Origin: Thermoanaerobaculia bacterium
Lineage (GTDB): Bacteria > Acidobacteriota > Thermoanaerobaculia > Gp7-AA8
DNA: 64,000 bases
Assembly (NCBI GenBank): GCA_038244715.1
Contig: JBBRTE010000015.1
Location: forward strand, 38,956 to 102,955
Reading direction: 5' to 3'
Within the stretch, counting starts at the first letter, position 1; each line of letters begins with the position of its first letter. The notes below the pieces were generated by a model. The model searched no databases. It worked only from the letters and a program-made list of their open reading frames with translations, and was not told the DNA's origin. This document shows, in pieces, positions 23,291 through 55,819 of the stretch. The position numbers were made by a program, and so were the translations under genes.

Positions 23291-25030
23291 TTACGAGCGC
23301 GCGCTCGTGTCATCCGGCTGCCGAGGATTCGTCGTCGCCCCAGCCACCGCGATCAGCAGACAGAGTCCCATCAAGATCATTGCCCGATGGCGGAACAGCG
23401 TTCCGAAATTACTGATCGTAAAGCACAGCAGCAGCATGATCGTGGGCGTCATCACCGCCACGAGCCAGAACGATCCGTTCCGGAGCACTCCCCGCGACAG
23501 GCCACGAAAAACGTAGTAGGCCGCGGCAATGAGCAGGAAATCGAACACGAGAGTGTCGATCTCCACGATGGCCCACAGCCCACGCCCTCCACCAATGTGG
23601 ATGAGACCGAGCCACTCTCCGATCATATGGGGCAGGACAACTGCCGCGACACCGGCCACGATTCGCGCGACCGTCGAGCGCGGCATCCCCGGGACGCCGG
23701 AAGCCGGAGAACGCGAGGCTCTGCGTTTTGCAACAGTCCCAGCCGGCCTGGCCACAACCACTGGTGCGGGTGCCGGCGACTTGGACGTGGCAGCGGTGGG
23801 TGCGGGTGCCGGCGACTTGGACGTGGCAACAGTGGGTGCGGGTGGCGGAATCGCGCTGTTTTTCCCGGCGCCAGGTCCGCCCGCAGCAGCCGTTCTGACG
23901 GTTCGAGGCGGCTCCCGCGCGATCGCTTCATGGGTGAGCGAGGGCGCCTGCGACGCGCCGGGAGATTCCGTCACCGGCTTCGAATCGGAGTCTCCGTCAC
24001 CCGGCATCGCCGCCGGACCCGCTCCGCCCTCGGACGGGTCGATCCGCCGAAGGGTGCTGCCTTCCTGGATCATCGAATTGCCATGCGAGGCGTCGAATCC
24101 CGCTCGCGTCCGCAGTAAGGCAGTGGTCAGCGGCTCGGTCGTCGTAATGGTCCGCGCGCCGAGCAATCTCGCGACTTGGGGCGGGACATAGGGTCGACCC
24201 GCAAAAAGAATAACCTGAGAGAGCGCAACAAATACCGCGGCGTTGCACACTCCGGCTGCCAGGCGACGATCGCTTCGCCAGGCAGCGATGACAAAGAACG
24301 GTGCCGACGCGAACCATAGGATCAGCCCGAAATACCAACGAACGCCGACCACGGAATAGAGGACCACCGCCATCAGCAGCAGTGGCACGACGAACCGGGC
24401 CAACGGCTGACGGAGCCCGATCCACGCGTCCTGCCACATCGCGGACGCAGCCACAAACGCGGCAACCGCGAAGATGAAGAAGGGATCCTTGAGAGGCTGT
24501 GCAGACCAGAGGATCACCGCGGGAGCGAAACTCAACGCCCCTGCCGCGACGAGCGCGGATGGTCGGATGAGTCCGTCTTCCGTGCGACCCAGCCGGAGAA
24601 TCGCGGCACAGGCGCCCAGATACGCGAAGAGATTCAGGAACGCGCCGACTGCTGCTGCGCCCCCGAAGAGGAGGATGAAAACCGCGAGAACCTGCAGAAA
24701 GGCGGGGGAAGGCAGGGTCTTATCAACGAGCACCACAGCCTTCCAACCCTGTGTCAGGAGGCCCTGGGACATCACGAAGTAGAGATGGCCATCGATGGCC
24801 AGGTTCCAGAAGCCTTCCCCATCCTGAAGAGGCCGCGCAATGGGAAGGTGCAGGTAAGAAATCCAGAACATCGCCTGCGCCATGAACGCCCGGGCCACGA
24901 GACCGATCCCGATCAGCAACCCGGCACGAGCACTCCACGCCGCGAGCCGGCGCCAGATCATCCACAGCAGCCATCCCGCCCCAAACGTGAGGAACACCTG
25001 GATTGAGGCTAGGAGAAATAACCAGGGCAT
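23291..25030 (-). CDS. Polytopic membrane protein of unknown function with internal Pro/Thr-rich repeat linker
   Basis: 579 aa with multiple TM helices at both ends and a central soluble Pro/Ala/Thr/Ser-rich region containing PAPAPTVATSKSPAPAPTAATSKSPAPAP, which is encoded by a 36-bp tandem repeat. Confidence 0.55.
   Translation of the reverse strand: MPWLFLLASIQVFLTFGAGWLLWMIWRRLAAWSARAGLLIGIGLVARAFMAQAMFWISYLHLPIARPLQDGEGFWNLAIDGHLYFVMSQGLLTQGWKAVVLVDKTLPSPAFLQVLAVFILLFGGAAAVGAFLNLFAYLGACAAILRLGRTEDGLIRPSALVAAGALSFAPAVILWSAQPLKDPFFIFAVAAFVAASAMWQDAWIGLRQPLARFVVPLLLMAVVLYSVVGVRWYFGLILWFASAPFFVIAAWRSDRRLAAGVCNAAVFVALSQVILFAGRPYVPPQVARLLGARTITTTEPLTTALLRTRAGFDASHGNSMIQEGSTLRRIDPSEGGAGPAAMPGDGDSDSKPVTESPGASQAPSLTHEAIAREPPRTVRTAAAGGPGAGKNSAIPPPAPTVATSKSPAPAPTAATSKSPAPAPVVVARPAGTVAKRRASRSPASGVPGMPRSTVARIVAGVAAVVLPHMIGEWLGLIHIGGGRGLWAIVEIDTLVFDFLLIAAAYYVFRGLSRGVLRNGSFWLVAVMTPTIMLLLCFTISNFGTLFRHRAMILMGLCLLIAVAGATTNPRQPDDTSARS
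23765..23847. repeat. In-frame 36-bp tandem repeat (2.3 copies) inside the membrane-protein gene
   Basis: gcgggtgccggcgacttggacgtggcagcggtgggt at 23765-23800, repeated at 23801-23836 with 2 mismatches, then an 11-nt partial copy. Confidence 0.8.
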
Positions 25031-50413: not shown

Positions 50414-51870
50414 TTCCCTCGCTCGACCTCCTCGGCGGTCAGGTGGTCCGGCTCCTTCACGGCGACTTCGCGAAGGTAACGCCGTACGGTGATCCGCAAC
50501 GAGTGCTCGACACTTTGAACGTCCCCCGGGGATCGCGTCTCCACGTCGTCGATCTCGAGGCCTCGCGAAGCGGACGGCCGGTGGAAACAGAGATCGTGCG
50601 GCGGCTGGCGACGCGCGGTCTGCGCATCCAGGCCGGCGGCGGGATTCGATCGCTGGCCGATGCACGCGCCTGGATCGATGCCGGTGCGGAGAAAGTCGTC
50701 ATCGGCACCGTCGCCGCGGATTCACCCGACGTCCTGCGCAGCATCGTCGATGCGTTGGGAGCCCGGCGCGTCGTCGCCGCGATCGACGTCCGCGACGGCA
50801 TCGTGCGTGTCGCAGGATGGGAGCGCGATGCGACCTCGTCGCTCAGTGAAGTACTGGAACGCGTCGAAGCGCTCGGAATCGCCGAGGCGTTGATCACGGA
50901 CATCCGCAAGGACGGTGCGATGCGTGGCCCGTCGTTCGCGCTCTACCGCGCGCTCCGCACCGGGCTCTCCATCATCGCCTCGGGCGGAGTGTCGACGGTC
51001 AGCGATGTGGTCTCGCTCAGCCGGATCCCTGCCGTCGGCGCGTGCGTCATCGGCCGCGCTCTGCTCGACGGCCGAGTGTCGCTCGCCGAGACGCAGGCGC
51101 GCGTGGCGACGACGAACCGCATTCCTGAACGCATCATCCCCTGTCTCGACGTGCGCGACGGACGGGTCGTGAAAGGCGTGAACTTCGTCGACATCCGCGA
51201 CGCTGGCGACCCGGTCGAGTGCGCGGTGCGCTACGAAGCGGAAGGCGCCGACGAACTGGTCATCCTCGACATCTCGGCCACCGACGCGAATCGCTCGACC
51301 GCGCTCGACATCGTCCGGCGCGTCTCGGAATCGCTCTTCATTCCTCTGACGGTGGGCGGCGGCGTGCGGTCGATCGAAGACTTTCGCGCTCTGCTGCGGG
51401 CCGGGGCGGATCGGGTGGCGATCAACACCGCTGCCATCCGGAATCCGCAAATCATCGCAGATTGTGCGACCGAGTTCGGCGTCCAGGCCGTGGTGCTGTC
51501 GTGCGACGCGAAACTCGTCGACGGACGGTTCGAAGCCATGGTCCGCGGCGGCAAAGAGTCGTCGGGTGTGGATGCCATCGAATGGTGCCGGCGCGCCGAG
51601 GAGCTGGGGACGGGCGAGATCCTGCTCACGTCGGTCGATCGCGACGGCACGAACAGCGGCTACGACATTCCGCTGCTGCGCGCGGTGACCAGTTTCGTGA
51701 AGATCGGCGTCATCGCGTCGGGCGGCGCTGGGAGCGTGGACGACTTTCGCGATGCCATCGAAGCCGGCGGCGCCCGCGCGGTGCTGGCCGCATCACTGTT
51801 TCACGATCGGCGTCTCTCGATCGGTGACGTCAAACAATTTCTGCAACAGGAAGGGATACCGGTTCGATGA
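50404..51870 (+). CDS. hisA-hisF: Fused HisA-HisF: ProFAR isomerase (N-terminal) fused to imidazole glycerol phosphate synthase cyclase subunit (C-terminal)
   Basis: Single uninterrupted 488-aa ORF. Residues ~1-235 [17 protein letters not shown]...[17 protein letters not shown] (HisA). Linker [13 protein letters not shown]. Residues ~250-488 [19 protein letters not shown]...[12 protein letters not shown] (HisF). Confidence 0.85.
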
Positions 51871-52430
51871 AACTCACCCCCGCCATCATCCAGGATGCTC
51901 GAACGGGCGAAGTCCTGACGCTCGCCTACATGAACGACGAAGCGCTGCAACGCACCCGCGAGACCGGCCAGACCTGGCTCTGGAGCCGCTCGCGCAACGA
52001 GCTGTGGCACAAGGGAGCGATGTCGGGCAACACGCAGCGCGTCATCGCCATCAGCGAAGACTGTGACCGGGATGCGTTCGTCCTCAGCGTGATCCCGAAC
52101 GGTCCCGCATGTCACACCGGCGCGCGCTCCTGCTTCACCGGGGTGCCGCCGCGCACGATCGAGCGGCTGATGCGTGTGCTCCGCGATCGCCACGAACGAC
52201 GCCCCGAGGGGTCGTACACGGCCACCCTGTTCAACGGCGGCCGAGGGCGCATTGCCAAGAAGATCGGCGAAGAAGCGACGGAAGTCGTCATCGCCTCGCT
52301 CAGCGAGACGCGCGAGCGCCTGGTCAGCGAGATCGCCGACCTGGTTTTTCACGTCAGCGTGCTGATGACGGAGGCCGGCGTCGAGTGGAGCGAGATCGAG
52401 GGCGAGCTGGACGGGCGAGCGAAGGAATAA
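51867..52430 (+). CDS. hisIE: Bifunctional phosphoribosyl-AMP cyclohydrolase / phosphoribosyl-ATP pyrophosphatase
   Basis: 187 aa. N-terminal [32 protein letters not shown]...C..G..SCF (HisI). C-terminal EGSYTATLF...[13 protein letters not shown]...ADLVFHV (HisE). Confidence 0.9.
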
Positions 52431-52450
52431 GCCGAAAGGTAGCGCCTTGC

Positions 52451-52882
52451 TTTCGCGCGAAGCGCTTCGAACGGCGGGAAAAAGGTACGCCTCCCCCTTT
52501 CGCGCGAAGCGCTTTGGACTGTGGTGGCAGGGCCACCGCTTTGGGCGGGGGATTGTGCCTGTTCCGGAAGCGTTGAATCCTTTCGCGCGAAGCGCTTTGG
52601 ACTGCGGTGGCAGGGCCACCGCTTTGGGCGGGGGATTGTGCCTGTTCCGGAAGCGTTGAATCCTTTCGCGCGAAGCGCTTTGGGCTGCGGTGGCAAGGCC
52701 ACCGCTTTGGGCGGGCGATTGTGCCTGTTCCGGAAGCGTTGAATCCTTTCGCGCGAAGCGCTTTGGACTGTGGTGGCAGGGCCACCGCTTTGGGCGGGGG
52801 ATTGTGCCTGTTCCGGAAGCGTTGAATCCTTTCGCGCGAAGCGCTTTGGACTGCGGTGGCAGGGCCACCGCTTTGGGCGGGG
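52451..52882. repeat. Tandem array of an 83-bp palindrome-containing repeat (degenerate leader copy + 4 full units + 1 partial)
   Basis: Unit cgcgcgaagcgctttggactgcggtggcagggccaccgctttgggcgggggattgtgcctgttccggaagcgttgaatccttt at 52501-52583, 52584-52666, 52667-52749 and 52750-52832, a partial copy at 52833-52882 and a degenerate copy at 52451-52500. Units are contiguous with no unique spacers. Confidence 0.85.
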
Positions 52883-52992
52883 AAAGCTTCGGCCGAGCCA
52901 AAAAAGAAGGCAGCTCCCTCCTTCCGCGCGAGCACTTTCGAAGGGCCGTGGCAAGGCCACCCCTTTTGTTACTTCGGACGAGCCTTCGCCCT

Positions 52993-53041
52993 CCCAAAGC
53001 GGTGGCCCTGCCACCGCAGTCCAAAGCGCTTCGCGCGAAAG
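52993..53041. repeat. Inverted partial copy of the 83-bp repeat unit
   Basis: cccaaagcggtggccctgccaccgcagtccaaagcgcttcgcgcgaaag is the reverse complement of the unit's first ~49 nt. Confidence 0.7.
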
Positions 53042-53105
53042 AGGTTGACGAGCCTCCTCTCGCCTGGCATTGTCCCTTCTCGGCATTTCCGCTAACGTTC
53101 CTTCC

Positions 53106-54488
53106 ATGCTGCGACGCTCGCTTCTTGCTCTCTCACTCGTTCTCGCCTTCGCTGCTCCTGCGGCGCAGCGCAACGTCGACCTCGTCATCACGCATGGAAC
53201 CGTCATTCCCATGTCCGGCCCGAACCTCGATGACGGCGCGGTGGCTATCGACAAAGGCGACATCGTCGCTGTCGGCAAGTCTTCGGATTTAACGAGACGG
53301 TTCAAGGGCCGTGAGGTCATCAACGCGCGTGGCATGGCCGTCCTCCCCGGCTTCGTCAACGCGCATACGCACGTCCCGATGACGCTCTTCCGCGGCATCG
53401 CCGACGATCTCGACCTGATGGACTGGCTGCAGCACTTCATCTTTCCGGCCGAGGCGAAAAACGTCGATCGCGACTTCGTCCGGTGGGGAACGCGCCTGGC
53501 CGCGGCGGAGATGATCGCTTCCGGCACGACGACATTCACCGACATGTACTACTTCGAGAGCGACATCGCTGCGGAAGCGAAGAAGGCGGGGTTGCGCGCG
53601 GTCGTCGGCGAAACGATGATCGACTTTCCCGCGCCCGACAGCAAGACGTGGGACGCTTCCGTCGCGTATGTGCGCGACTTCGTGAAGCGCTGGCACGGCG
53701 ACCGGCTCATCACCCCCGCCCTCGCGCCGCACGCGCCCTACACCGTCTCGCGCGCGCACCTCGAGCAGATCCGTGCGCTCGCGACGGAGTTGCACGCGCC
53801 GATCCTCATCCATGTCGCCGAGACGAAGAATGAGGGAGCGCAGATCAAGGACAACACCGGCGGCCTCTCCCCCGCCGCCTACCTCGACTCCATCGGCTTC
53901 CTCGGCCACGACGTCGTCGCGGCACATGGAGTGTGGCTGACTGCGGACGACATCAAGACCTTCGCCGCCAAACGCGTCGGCGTCGCGCACTGCCCCGAGA
54001 GCAACATGATGCTGGCCTCCGGCGTCGCTCCCGTCGTCGACATGCGCCGCGCCGGAGTCGCGCTCGGATTGGGAACTGACGGACCGGCCGGATCGAACAA
54101 CAACCTCGACATGGTCGAAGAGGCCGCCAGTGCAGCCCGATTGCAGAAGATCACTCGCGGCGATCCGAAAGCGCTCAGCGCCCGCGACGTCCTGGAGATG
54201 GCTACCCTCGGCGGCGCCCGCGCCCTCGGCATGGAGGATCGCATCGGGACCCTCGAAGCCGGCAAACGCGCCGATGTCATCGTCATCGACCTGCAACAGG
54301 CGAAAACACAGCCGGTCTATGCCGTCGAATCCGCGATCGTCTATGCCGCGTCCGGAAGCGCCGTCGTAACCACCATCTGCGACGGCAAGGTGCTGATGCG
54401 CAACCGCAAGGTCCTCACCGTCGATGTCCCCGCCGCCATCGCCAAGGCGAAGGAGTATCGCGACAAGGTTCGGAAGAGTCTGCATTAG
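53106..54488 (+). CDS. Secreted metal-dependent amidohydrolase (chlorohydrolase/aminohydrolase family)
   Basis: ATG 53106 (MLRRSLLALSLVLAFAAPAAQ signal peptide). GFVNAHTHVPMT (HxH metal motif)...HVAET...GTDGPAGSNN. Confidence 0.8.
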   Translation: MLRRSLLALSLVLAFAAPAAQRNVDLVITHGTVIPMSGPNLDDGAVAIDKGDIVAVGKSSDLTRRFKGREVINARGMAVLPGFVNAHTHVPMTLFRGIADDLDLMDWLQHFIFPAEAKNVDRDFVRWGTRLAAAEMIASGTTTFTDMYYFESDIAAEAKKAGLRAVVGETMIDFPAPDSKTWDASVAYVRDFVKRWHGDRLITPALAPHAPYTVSRAHLEQIRALATELHAPILIHVAETKNEGAQIKDNTGGLSPAAYLDSIGFLGHDVVAAHGVWLTADDIKTFAAKRVGVAHCPESNMMLASGVAPVVDMRRAGVALGLGTDGPAGSNNNLDMVEEAASAARLQKITRGDPKALSARDVLEMATLGGARALGMEDRIGTLEAGKRADVIVIDLQQAKTQPVYAVESAIVYAASGSAVVTTICDGKVLMRNRKVLTVDVPAAIAKAKEYRDKVRKSLH

Positions 54489-54514: not shown

Positions 54515-55819
54515 ATGAAACGATTCCTCATCGCATCACTCCTCCTCGTCGCCTCCGTGGCGCAGGCCAAAGAGGTGCTTCCGTGGATCGAGAACGACTA
54601 CACCAAGGCAATCGCCCGTGCCCGCGCCGCAGACCTTCCGGTCTTCGTCGAGGCGTGGGCGCCGTGGTGACACACGTGCCGCTCCATGAGGGCCTATGTC
54701 TTCACGGACAAGACCCTTGAGCGGTACGCCGGACGGTTCGTCTGGCTCTCGATCGACACGGAAAACGCAACGAACACGGCCTTCCTGAAGGCGCATCCGA
54801 TCAGCGTCTGGCCGACGTTGCTCATCCTCGACCCGAAGGACAAGGTCGTCTTCCGTTACCCCGGCGGAGGGACGGTGGCGCAGGTCCGCAAATTGCTCGA
54901 CGATGGCGAACGCGCGGCACGCGGCTCACATGCGAAGGCCGACATCGCCTTCGTACGCGCCGATGCTCTGGCCGGAGAGGGAAAGCAGGCCGAAGCGGCG
55001 AAGGCGTTCGATGAGGCAATCGCCGCGGCGCCGAAACACTGGCCGGGCCTCGGACGCGCCTCCGAGTCGCTGGTCCTGGCGCTCGCGCAGAGCCGGGATC
55101 CGCAGCGTTGCGCCGAGCGTGCGCTCGCCCTCTACCCACGCATTCGCGGAACGGGATCAGCGGTGAACGTCGCAGGCATGGGTCTCTCGTGTGCGACGGA
55201 TCTCGACGCCGCGAAATCGTGGAATCGCTCCGAGCTCATCGCCGGCCTGGAGAAGGCGACGCGCGAAACGCTTGCCGCAGCCGACCGGATCCGGATGTCC
55301 GCCGATGATCGCTCCGGCCTCTACGAATCGCTCATCGAGGCGCGTGTCGAGGCGAAGGACGAAGCCGCCGCCCGAGCCCTCCGCGAACAACAGGCCGCGT
55401 TCCTCGAGGCAGAGGCGGCGAAGGCGAAAACACCCGACCAGCGGGCCGTCTATGATCCCCACCGCCTCACCGTCTACCTCGGACTGAAGCAGCCGGAAAA
55501 AGCGATTGCGATGCTGGAACAGTCCGAGCGCGATCTGCCGAAGGACTACAACCCGCCCGCGCGCCTCATCTCGGCGTACAAGGCAGCGAAGCGTTACGAC
55601 GACGCCATCGCCGCATCCGACCGTGCGCTCAAACTCGCGTACGGCCCGCGCAAGATCGGCATCTACCGCAACCGCGCATCGGTCTACATCGCGAAGGGTG
55701 ACAAGGACGAGGCGAAAACGACCATCGAGGAAGCGATCCGCTACGCCGAGTCGCTTCCGAAAGAGCAGCAGAGCGAAGCCCAGGTCGCGTCGATGAAGAA
55801 ACAGTTGACGACGATGTGA
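54515..55819 (+). CDS. Secreted thioredoxin-like (Thioredoxin_7/DsbD-gamma-like) + TPR protein with UxxC redox motif: putative selenoprotein (in-frame TGA at 54668-54670)
   Basis: ATG 54515: MKRFLIASLLLVASVAQA (signal) KEVLPWIENDYTKAIARARAADLPVFVEAWAPW-U-HTCRSMRAYVFTDKTLERYAGRFVWLSIDTEN...WPTLLILDPKDKVVF. TGA sits exactly where the first Cys of the WCxxC thioredoxin motif is expected. Same frame continues into the track ORF 54686..55819 (TPR-like C-terminal domain). 434 codons. Confidence 0.65.

Follow-up and report, generated by a model that had tools for sequence, protein, structure and literature searches.

We analyzed a 64-kb stretch of DNA (64,000 nucleotides, which we call the window) from a bacterium of the class Thermoanaerobaculia in the phylum Acidobacteriota (assembly GCA_038244715.1, contig JBBRTE010000015.1, positions 38,956 to 102,955), and we discuss here a block of 83-nt repeats that lies between the end of the histidine biosynthesis operon and the next gene. 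On the left is hisIE, the last gene of the his operon (51867-52430, plus strand; homologues of its translation carry PF01502 and PF01503), and on the right is a putative amidohydrolase (53106-54488, plus strand; homologues with PF01979 and PF07969) whose translation has a signal-peptide-like N-terminus. Both genes are outside the repeat element. The closest named relatives of the flanking proteins are Thermoanaerobaculia proteins, and the gene order hisD-C-B-H-AF-IE is found in two related contigs (L031 and L033). A preliminary description of this DNA, made from its sequence alone, had reported five contiguous copies of an 83-bp unit directly after hisIE, in a gap that separates hisIE from a secreted amidohydrolase. 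The period and the position hold. Tandem Repeats Finder (TRF) identifies a head-to-tail array at 52496-52882 with a period of 83, 4.7 copies, 97% matches, no indels, and a score of 739, which makes it by far the strongest tandem repeat of the window. It begins 66 nt downstream of the hisIE stop codon (52428-52430), lies upstream of the amidohydrolase gene, and contains five cores in register.

More precisely, the array (plus strand) consists of five 53-nt cores (52498-52550, 52581-52633, 52664-52716, 52747-52799, and 52830-52882) that are separated by four 30-nt linkers (52551-52580, 52634-52663, 52717-52746, and 52800-52829). All five cores are also found by nhmmer (E values from 7e-16 to 1e-14). 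The core reads TTTCGCGCGAAGCGCTTTGGACTG[C/T]GGTGGCA[G/A]GGCCACCGCTTTGGGCGGGG and the linker reads GATTGTGCCTGTTCCGGAAGCGTTGAATCC. Because the linker is the same in 4/4 occurrences, there are no unique spacers, and a CRISPR array is excluded, as had been proposed from the start. When a single 83-nt unit is folded, which had been suggested as a check, it forms exactly two hairpins as single-stranded DNA: GCGC-GAA-GCGC and GCGGTGGC-AGG-GCCACCGC. Allowing for variation between units, the second hairpin is G[T/C]GGTGGC-A[G/A]G-GCCACCGC with an 8-bp stem. These lie at 52502-52512 and 52521-52539 in unit 1 (both on the plus strand) and recur every 83 nt. The heptamer GCGAAGC, which is contained in the first hairpin, is a notably stable DNA mini-hairpin. 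The hairpin CGGTGGC-agg-GCCACCG had been assigned to every unit; three units (2, 3, and 5) and the inverted copy described below have it exactly, with the loop a(g/a)g, while units 1 and 4 have TGGTGGC. The reported single-nucleotide polymorphisms (SNPs) between units (ctgcgg/ctgtgg and cagggcc/caaggcc) are indeed present. On the other hand, the palindrome GCGCTTCGCGCGAAGCGC, which was said to form across the unit junctions, does not occur anywhere in the window. The true motifs, TTCGCGCGAA and the mini-hairpin GCGC-GAA-GCGC, lie inside each unit rather than at the junctions.

Several features around and within the array had gone unnoticed: a truncated core, a degenerate core, the true extent of the inverted copy, a 213-nt hairpin, and a 249-nt period. 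The truncated core (52450-52477, plus strand; nhmmer match at 52451-52476, E = 6.6e-4) has the 5' box only (CTTTCGCGCGAAGCGCTTCGAACGGCGG) and lacks the second hairpin. It includes an exact 16-nt box at 52452-52467, and it is also present in L030, an independent contig from the same species. Downstream of the array there is a degenerate forward core (52922-52968, plus strand; nhmmer E = 5.3e-4, with a 3-mismatch match to the hairpin at 52945-52963), followed after 17 nt by an inverted core (52986-53041, minus strand; nhmmer E = 3e-16) that begins 103 nt past the end of the array. The inverted copy had been described as a 49-nt partial copy at 52993-53041; it exists, but it comprises the whole core (56 nt), with 96% complementarity to unit 2. 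Together, the degenerate core and the inverted core make up a doublet of about 120 nt, which is the commonest doublet size in related genomes, and 14/25 convergent doublets have a gap of 15-39 nt between their arms. The last unit of the array can also pair with the inverted core to give a long hairpin of 213 nt (52829-53041, assigned to neither strand), with 77-nt arms that are 87% complementary and a 59-nt loop. As single-stranded DNA, this hairpin has a computed dG of -96.3 kcal/mol (z = -12.75 versus shuffled sequence). Overall, the 16-nt box TTCGCGCGAAGCGCTT has seven exact occurrences within 52452-53039. If two mismatches are allowed, there are 8 matches in the window versus 0.19 expected, and the hairpin motif has 11 matches versus 0.09 expected. 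Finally, units 4-5 are identical to units 1-2 at 138/138 positions (at an offset of 249), so there is a higher-order period of 249 nt, or three units, and the SNP pattern is ordered across the units as 1-2-3-1-2.

Long open reading frames (ORFs) cross the array on both strands, but we reject a coding array, as these are the usual artefacts of GC-rich DNA and a period of 83 is not divisible by 3. The array is real, it is non-coding, and it is not a CRISPR.

The core is not confined to this locus. A composite pattern, made up of the box, a gap of 2-20 nt, and the hairpin, was run against a single genome from each species and gave 29 loci, 28 of them in metagenome-assembled genomes (MAGs) from six species of Thermoanaerobaculia. 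We took the other match, in a Verrucomicrobiae MAG (L022), to be a chance or partial match, as its gap differs and its flanks are not shared, and we left it out of the alignments. The complete 5.89-Mb chromosome OY970380.1 has 11 matches to the exact pattern and at least 16 copies of the repeat. At all 28 loci (28/28), similarity begins abruptly at TTTCGCGCG and stops soon after CCGCTTT, and the flanks are unrelated. Because the flanks diverge immediately beyond TTTCGCG...CCGCTTT, the element is sharply bounded, at about 50 nt. Its family-wide form is TTTCGCGCGAAGCGCTTTGGA(G/C)TGCGGTGGC-loop-GCCACCGCTTT, which comprises the GCGC-GAA-GCGC mini-hairpin and the 8-bp GC-rich hairpin. With an nhmmer profile made from these family members, we counted 65 copies in the window and the 29 loci together, or 72 copies in 31 loci once redundant loci were dropped and later-fetched loci were added.

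Most of the adjacent pairs of copies (25/38) are convergent, with their TTTCGCGCG ends outermost; the only same-orientation neighbors are four in the window's array and four in another contig, L037. The convergent doublets of related genomes span 108-191 nt and fold into near-perfect long hairpins (the doublet in L004 has z = -11.4). By crude gene calls, most copies are intergenic and many of them start 7-30 nt past a stop codon. (The gene caller over-extends start codons, so we do not trust the 7 cases in which copies appear to overlap genes.) None of the doublets (0/26) is flanked by a target-site duplication of 2 nt or more: 21 have none and 5 share a single base, which is the level expected by chance. 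The absence of target-site duplications fits single-strand transposition by HUH enzymes and argues against a miniature inverted-repeat transposable element (MITE) of the DDE type. A scan of viral contigs gave 0 matches to the repeat, so a phage origin is unsupported.

Two other repeats in L033 are worth recording here. Between hisB and hisH (L033:1393-1822) there is a 3x tandem array of a sister type of doublet, with a period of 137-145 and 90-95% matches. Its arms are CTGGAGTGCGGCGGCCATGCCGCCGCTCT and its inverse; they share the TGGAGTGCGG-hairpin part of the family and lack the TTTCGCGCGAAGCGC box. This array may be a second repeat population of that genome. Also, a perfect 12-nt inverted repeat, CAGCTGAGTGCT / AGCACTCAGCTG, flanks the doublet that follows the amidohydrolase gene (L033:6761-6910), as if the doublet had landed in the loop of a hairpin that was already there and that may be a terminator.

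Both hairpins of the core are kept by compensatory changes. Across 66 distinct family members (alignment A3), standard pairs are found in 99.6% of 791 cells, versus 17-66% if the partners are slid by 1-3 columns. Changes on both sides occur in three pairs, for a total of 10 cells, and 0/500 shuffles reach 10. The four pairs of hairpin 1 are 100% paired, and one of them has a CG-to-GC double change in 2/66 members. The eight pairs of hairpin 2 are 99.4% paired, with double changes in two pairs (UA to CG and GC to AU). The change in hairpin 1 (TTCGGGCGAAGCCC) breaks the double-stranded palindrome TTCGCGCGAA and preserves the stem, which points to a folded single strand rather than to a duplex operator.

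In related genomes, the repeats lie beside a gene for a putative REP-associated tyrosine transposase (RAYT), where REP stands for repetitive extragenic palindrome. In L033 and L034, whose hisIE is 85% identical to the window's, a minus-strand ORF of 182 amino acids lies between hisIE and a doublet, and the doublet is at the position of the window's element. The L033 protein (L033:4583-5131, minus strand) matches the NCBIfam model NF047646 (REP_Tyr_transpos) with E = 2.3e-14 over positions 9-146 of 146. The family to which it belongs has 524 members at E <= 1e-5, and some records from Thermoanaerobaculia MAGs are already named REP-associated tyrosine transposase. RAYTs from these relatives are 179-182 amino acids long, and 17 homologues, 58-91% identical to the L033 protein, all share the HUH motif (NHYHL) and the tyrosine motif RLRYTxxNxVxH without change. 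The best hit in the PDB for a profile of the family is 4ER8, the TnpA-REP protein of Escherichia coli (E = 0.0044); a search of the PDB with a single sequence gave noise only and did not recover 4ER8, so the profile was needed. An AlphaFold model (of P0121; pLDDT 88.9, pTM 0.85) is predicted to have the fold of TnpA-REP and of the TnpA proteins of IS200/IS605: the top Foldseek hit is 4er8_A (E = 1.1e-7, about 13% identity) and ranks 2-30 are all IS200/IS605 TnpA.

The nearest core is 49 nt from the start of the RAYT in L033, 60 nt in L037/L038, and 161 nt in L035. All three distances are shorter than the 200 bp that RAREFAN allows (10.1101/2022.05.22.493013). The RAYT is found at different chromosomal sites in different species. 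OY970380.1 has a 69%-identical homologue at another chromosomal site, with five cores upstream (the nearest at 161 nt), and the homologue in BP_50 has seven cores upstream (the nearest at 60 nt), of which four are in the same orientation in a loose direct repeat of about 190 nt. RAYTs that are more distant (59-65% identity, L039-L041) are flanked by diverged repeats that have the signature CGCGAAGCG-YTGGAGTGCGG-hairpin, which implies that the repeat and the enzyme diverge together.

We noticed three other features near these RAYT genes. A conserved stretch, GTAG(A/G)A...TTGAC or TTGCAA...GCCGAGGGA, lies directly upstream of the RAYT starts at L035:2940-3000, L037:2942-3000, L039:2950-3000, and L041:2950-3000. 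It is found across RAYTs that are 59-70% identical and includes a GTAG, the tetranucleotide missing from the repeat itself; it may act as a promoter or 5' leader common to these genes. L041:2600-2800, upstream of that contig's RAYT and flanking repeat, holds a run of short direct repeats that are GCGCAGTAAAACTTTGCTCGG-like and about 25-30 nt each. And in OY970380.1 an ORF with a reverse transcriptase domain (RVT_1, a weak match) lies about 2 kb from the RAYT and its repeats (L035:1-747).

The array is thus a cluster of members of a REP/REPIN-type family (a REPIN is a doublet of inverted REPs that forms one hairpin), and the pairing of its last unit with the inverted core is REPIN-like. A REP array was one of three possibilities raised in the preliminary description, and it is the one that is borne out, since the core belongs to a dispersed, extragenic, hairpin-forming repeat family that sits beside RAYT genes in related genomes. 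We are fairly confident in going a step further and describing the array as a tandemly amplified REP cluster from a REPIN-RAYT-type system whose repeats are dispersed across the Thermoanaerobaculia. The core is a short palindromic repeat (about 50 nt, with hairpins of 4 bp and 8 bp) and is dispersed, multi-copy, and extragenic in the relatives, while the window's genome shows one locus within 64 kb. The functional unit would be the core of about 50 nt, and its usual form is the convergent doublet, or REPIN, which folds as a single long hairpin. The partner enzyme would be a divergent RAYT, which is to say an HUH/Y1 enzyme of the IS200/IS605 type. By homology, and by analogy with TnpA-REP of E. 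coli, the RAYT would recognize the folded single-stranded core and would spread the repeats by cutting and joining single-stranded hairpins (PMC8266576, PMC3116915). We infer that the window's own genome retains a RAYT.

This system resembles the REP/REPIN-RAYT systems of Pseudomonas and Enterobacteria in several ways: the repeats are short extragenic hairpins, most of which are paired as inverted doublets, each folding as one long hairpin; they cluster within 200 bp of a gene for an HUH/Tyr RAYT; the repeat and the RAYT diverge together; and there is no target-site duplication. In Pseudomonas fluorescens SBW25, REP doublets are the replicative unit and there are REPIN clusters beside each RAYT (Bertels and Rainey 2011, PMC3116915). 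The same genome also has tandem clusters of REPINs that include flanking sequence, as well as evenly spaced tandem arrays of single REPs (PMC3116915). There are differences as well. The host belongs to another phylum, Acidobacteriota (class Thermoanaerobaculia). The core has two hairpins, is longer, at about 50 nt, and has GGA(G/C)T instead of GTAG; copies appear to number in the tens per genome rather than in the hundreds; and the site of the RAYT differs between species. Only RAYTs of groups 2 and 3, which are the enterobacterial and Pseudomonas types, have been associated with REP/REPIN populations (RAREFAN preprint 10.1101/2022.05.22.493013), and the Thermoanaerobaculia RAYT is too divergent to be found with RAREFAN's default threshold (tblastn E < 1e-30).

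The window's array is also similar to the bacterial interspersed mosaic elements (BIMEs) of E. coli, which group several REPs with fixed linkers in a single intergenic region, in many cases at an operon's 3' end (PMC8266576). However, BIMEs alternate the orientation of their REPs (Y and Z types), whereas in the window a single REP type is arranged head-to-tail: all five cores are on the plus strand, there is one type of linker, and only the last pair is inverted. E. coli REPs have the GTAG motif and a bulged imperfect palindrome, and the Thermoanaerobaculia core is without GTAG. As for the enzymes, the predicted fold and the HUH and Tyr motifs of the Thermoanaerobaculia RAYT are the same as those of E. 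coli TnpA-REP (4ER8), at about 13% identity. Closer to home, the "TIRYT" proteins of Acidobacteria are a separate group of tyrosine transposases associated with repeated inverted-repeat families (Di Nocera et al. 2013, PMC3733652). Like the RAYTs described here, they are HUH transposases, and they are flanked by long inverted repeats; those of Koribacter versatilis ORF1552 form a repeated DNA family in dimers and clusters (PMC3733652). The TIRYTs come from isolates of the class Acidobacteriia, not from Thermoanaerobaculia, and our comparison is with their description rather than their sequences (PMC3733652).

A number of observations count against this interpretation. Neither the box, the hairpin, nor further searches of the 64-kb window found a second copy of the core elsewhere in it, and tblastn found no RAYT in the window. 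The head-to-tail arrangement is unusual in the repeat family; outside the window it occurs only beside the RAYT in L037. The GTAG (or GT[AG]G) that marks the 5' foot of known REP palindromes is absent from the core, and the family alignment has GGA(G/C)T before the main stem. The copy number in the relatives looks low, at tens per genome, although this is a lower bound only. Conservation of the 16-nt box is in part due to ascertainment, as the search pattern required the box, but the partner arms that were not selected by the box keep it too. The L033 protein scores 53.5 bits against NF047646, short of the curated cut-off of 80 bits, so that by this threshold it is a divergent relative and not an equivalog, and its match to Y1_Tnp in Pfam is weak (E = 0.043). 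A terminator scan found 1 terminator-like site versus 1.9 expected, so there is no excess. Finally, no source for the linker turned up among the loci that we fetched, all of which lack it.

Could the array instead be an RNA element? The units might be small RNAs, hairpins that terminate or stabilize the his mRNA at its 3' end, or a leader for the amidohydrolase, and they might be conserved for a function in RNA. The compensatory changes in both hairpins would fit RNA as well as they fit single-stranded DNA, the whole intergenic gap folds far better as RNA than shuffled sequences do (z = -9.8), many members of the family begin just past stop codons as noted above, and CCGCTTT(T) follows the stem in many of them. 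Nevertheless, no Rfam family matches at the gathering score (0 in the window), and the matches below threshold, to the plant miRNA precursors MIR1437 and MIR1858, are artefacts that reflect the 213-nt hairpin. Also, copies occur in both orientations, mostly in convergent pairs, at unrelated loci, and they cluster beside a transposase gene, while the run of T's is only 3 nt in the window's units and the scan showed no excess of terminators. So we consider a structured RNA array, which had been one of the three initial suggestions, to be improbable. A REP can take on an RNA role secondarily, as happens in E. coli, which makes this less a competing explanation than an additional function. The repeats might also be the sites of a dimeric protein that binds double-stranded TTCGCGCGAA or AAGCGCTT, such as a regulator of the amidohydrolase or a nucleoid protein. 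This was another of the initial suggestions. There are seven exact 16-nt boxes with two overlapping palindromes within 600 nt, and the BIMEs of E. coli bind IHF and gyrase. But the box never occurs alone, except in the truncated copy: it and the second hairpin move together, as a single unit, to unrelated loci. The sole variable position of the box changes on both sides (TTCGGGCGAAGCCC), so that TTCGCGCGAA is lost and the GCGC-GAA-GCGC stem is kept, and relatives that are 90-91% identical have no repeat upstream of the same gene and still have TTCCGCTAA(C/G)GTTC just ahead of the start codon. We therefore think a cluster of binding sites very unlikely.

We give just as little credence to a classical MITE, that is, a deletion derivative of a DDE insertion sequence with terminal inverted repeats of about 50 nt, one end of which was tandemly amplified. 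The doublets do look like MITEs in their size (108-191 nt), in their long terminal inverted repeats with TTTCGCGCG outermost, and in their variable interiors. What they lack are the target-site duplications, and we saw no DDE transposase beside them: the sole transposase-like gene that is repeatedly adjacent is the HUH/Y1 RAYT. Furthermore, single arms are common, each with its own hairpins. The remaining concern is that the copy number, or the array itself, arose from a mis-assembled repeat. The only contig from the same species (L030, hisIE 99% identical), which is from an independent short-read assembly (SRR19962014), ends inside unit 1, just past the C/T site (ctgTgg vs ctgCgg) that separates unit 1 from units 2 and 3, and there is no contig on record for the right junction (for the amidohydrolase, nothing is closer than 94%), so the copy number of the array is provisional. 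Metagenome scans with the array's linker and with the window's own AGG-loop variant of the core gave 0 matches and thus no other assembly of the array, and exact look-ups of the proteins on both flanks returned no record. However, up to the point where it breaks off in unit 1, L030 is identical to the window, truncated core included, and such a break is how a short-read assembler behaves at a real repeat. The SNP pattern of the units is ordered, and the same types of element are present at this site in L031 and L033. An assembly artefact is, in our judgment, highly improbable.

If the array is an amplified REP cluster, then how did it arise? Alignments of the gap show the same left terminus, TTT[C/T]GCGC[G/A]AAGCGC, in the window, L031, and L033, and in all three the right-hand inverted core is at the same place before the start of the amidohydrolase. 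The element in L031, at about 88 nt, has an internal deletion; L033 has an intact 124-nt doublet plus the RAYT; and the window has the expanded array. In L042 and L043, where the amidohydrolase is 90-91% identical, there are one or two genes of the Uma2 family and no repeat; in L032 there are genes with a TIR_2 domain and a patatin domain; and in OY970380.1 other genes follow hisIE. Because its contents differ so much, we view the site after hisIE (52431-53105 in the window) as a variable insertion hotspot. On the simplest reading, the doublet would have been at this site before the lineages of the window, L031, and L033 split. In the window's lineage, one forward core and 30 nt of adjoining DNA would then have multiplied head-to-tail, by unequal exchange or replication slippage between direct copies, so that the five cores of the array, which are upstream of the doublet of about 120 nt, would be younger than it is. 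The 138/138 identity at an offset of 249 shows that the latest growth step was the duplication of a three-unit block between direct repeats. The term "minisatellite-like," which had been applied to the array, suits this mode of growth but does not explain where the unit came from. We also considered that the linker might be a decayed inverted core and rejected this, as the score of the local alignment is reached by about 40% of shuffles and the linker is missing from all the fetched loci. As a separate observation, GCCTGTTC is common to the linker and the L031 element.

The surroundings of the site offer a few more observations. The sequence TTCCGCTAA(C/G)GTTC lies 6-19 nt upstream of the amidohydrolase ATG (53087-53100 in the window). 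Regardless of what has been inserted before it, this sequence is kept in the window and in L033, L042, and L043, and L031 has a variant of it. It is a candidate promoter element and may be the amidohydrolase's own -10 region, with a very short leader. After the amidohydrolase there is an ORF for a product of 51 amino acids (54515-54670 in the window). A 51-amino-acid product is predicted at the same position in L031, L033, L042, and L043, with no hit in Pfam and with a TPR protein next each time, so on its sequence it looks like a conserved small protein. A long hairpin of GATTAGT-like heptamers and their complement lies downstream of the amidohydrolase in L043 (L043:3885-4030), and it is unrelated to the REP family. 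Elsewhere in the window, the second strongest tandem repeat (23763-23848; 36 nt, 2.4 copies, 94% matches, score 151) may be coding, its period being a multiple of 3.

The array can also be compared with the BOX element of Streptococcus pneumoniae (boxA-boxB(n)-boxC), a small non-coding, mobile-like element in which an internal module is tandemly repeated, in varying copy number, between inverted terminal modules. The BOX sequence is unrelated to that of the window's array and no RAYT goes with it, and in the window the module that is repeated is the terminal repeat itself, together with the linker.

What does the array do for its host? A transcript that read through from hisIE would carry five 8-bp GC hairpins and the 213-nt hairpin, which may stop transcription or protect the 3' end of the mRNA. 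So, by analogy with the REPs of enterobacteria, these hairpins may end or stabilize the his-operon transcript. A promoter scan found no promoter-like site. The array itself is probably a neutral by-product. A more ambitious view is that this is a distinct, previously uncharacterized REPIN-RAYT lineage outside the Proteobacteria, with its own mode of recognition, and that its head-to-tail arrays are functional rather than accidental. We consider this unlikely. If it were true, the substrate of the enzyme would be a GTAG-less sequence of about 50 nt with two hairpins, one of them GCGC-GAA-GCGC, and arrays such as the window's and the run in L037 could serve, for example, as a multi-hairpin 3' end or insulator for the his operon, or as a reservoir of substrate at a former site of the RAYT.

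Because a known process (the spread of REPs and REPINs followed by local tandem amplification) accounts for the 600-bp block of repeats, it need not count as a new system. Our searches of full-text literature found no description of this REP family in Thermoanaerobaculia. Arrays of this kind break short-read assemblies, as happened in L030, and they could serve as strain markers that vary in 83-bp steps. More broadly, a REP family and its cognate RAYT are now documented in the Thermoanaerobaculia, and their GTAG-less, two-hairpin substrate could inform how HUH enzymes recognize DNA.

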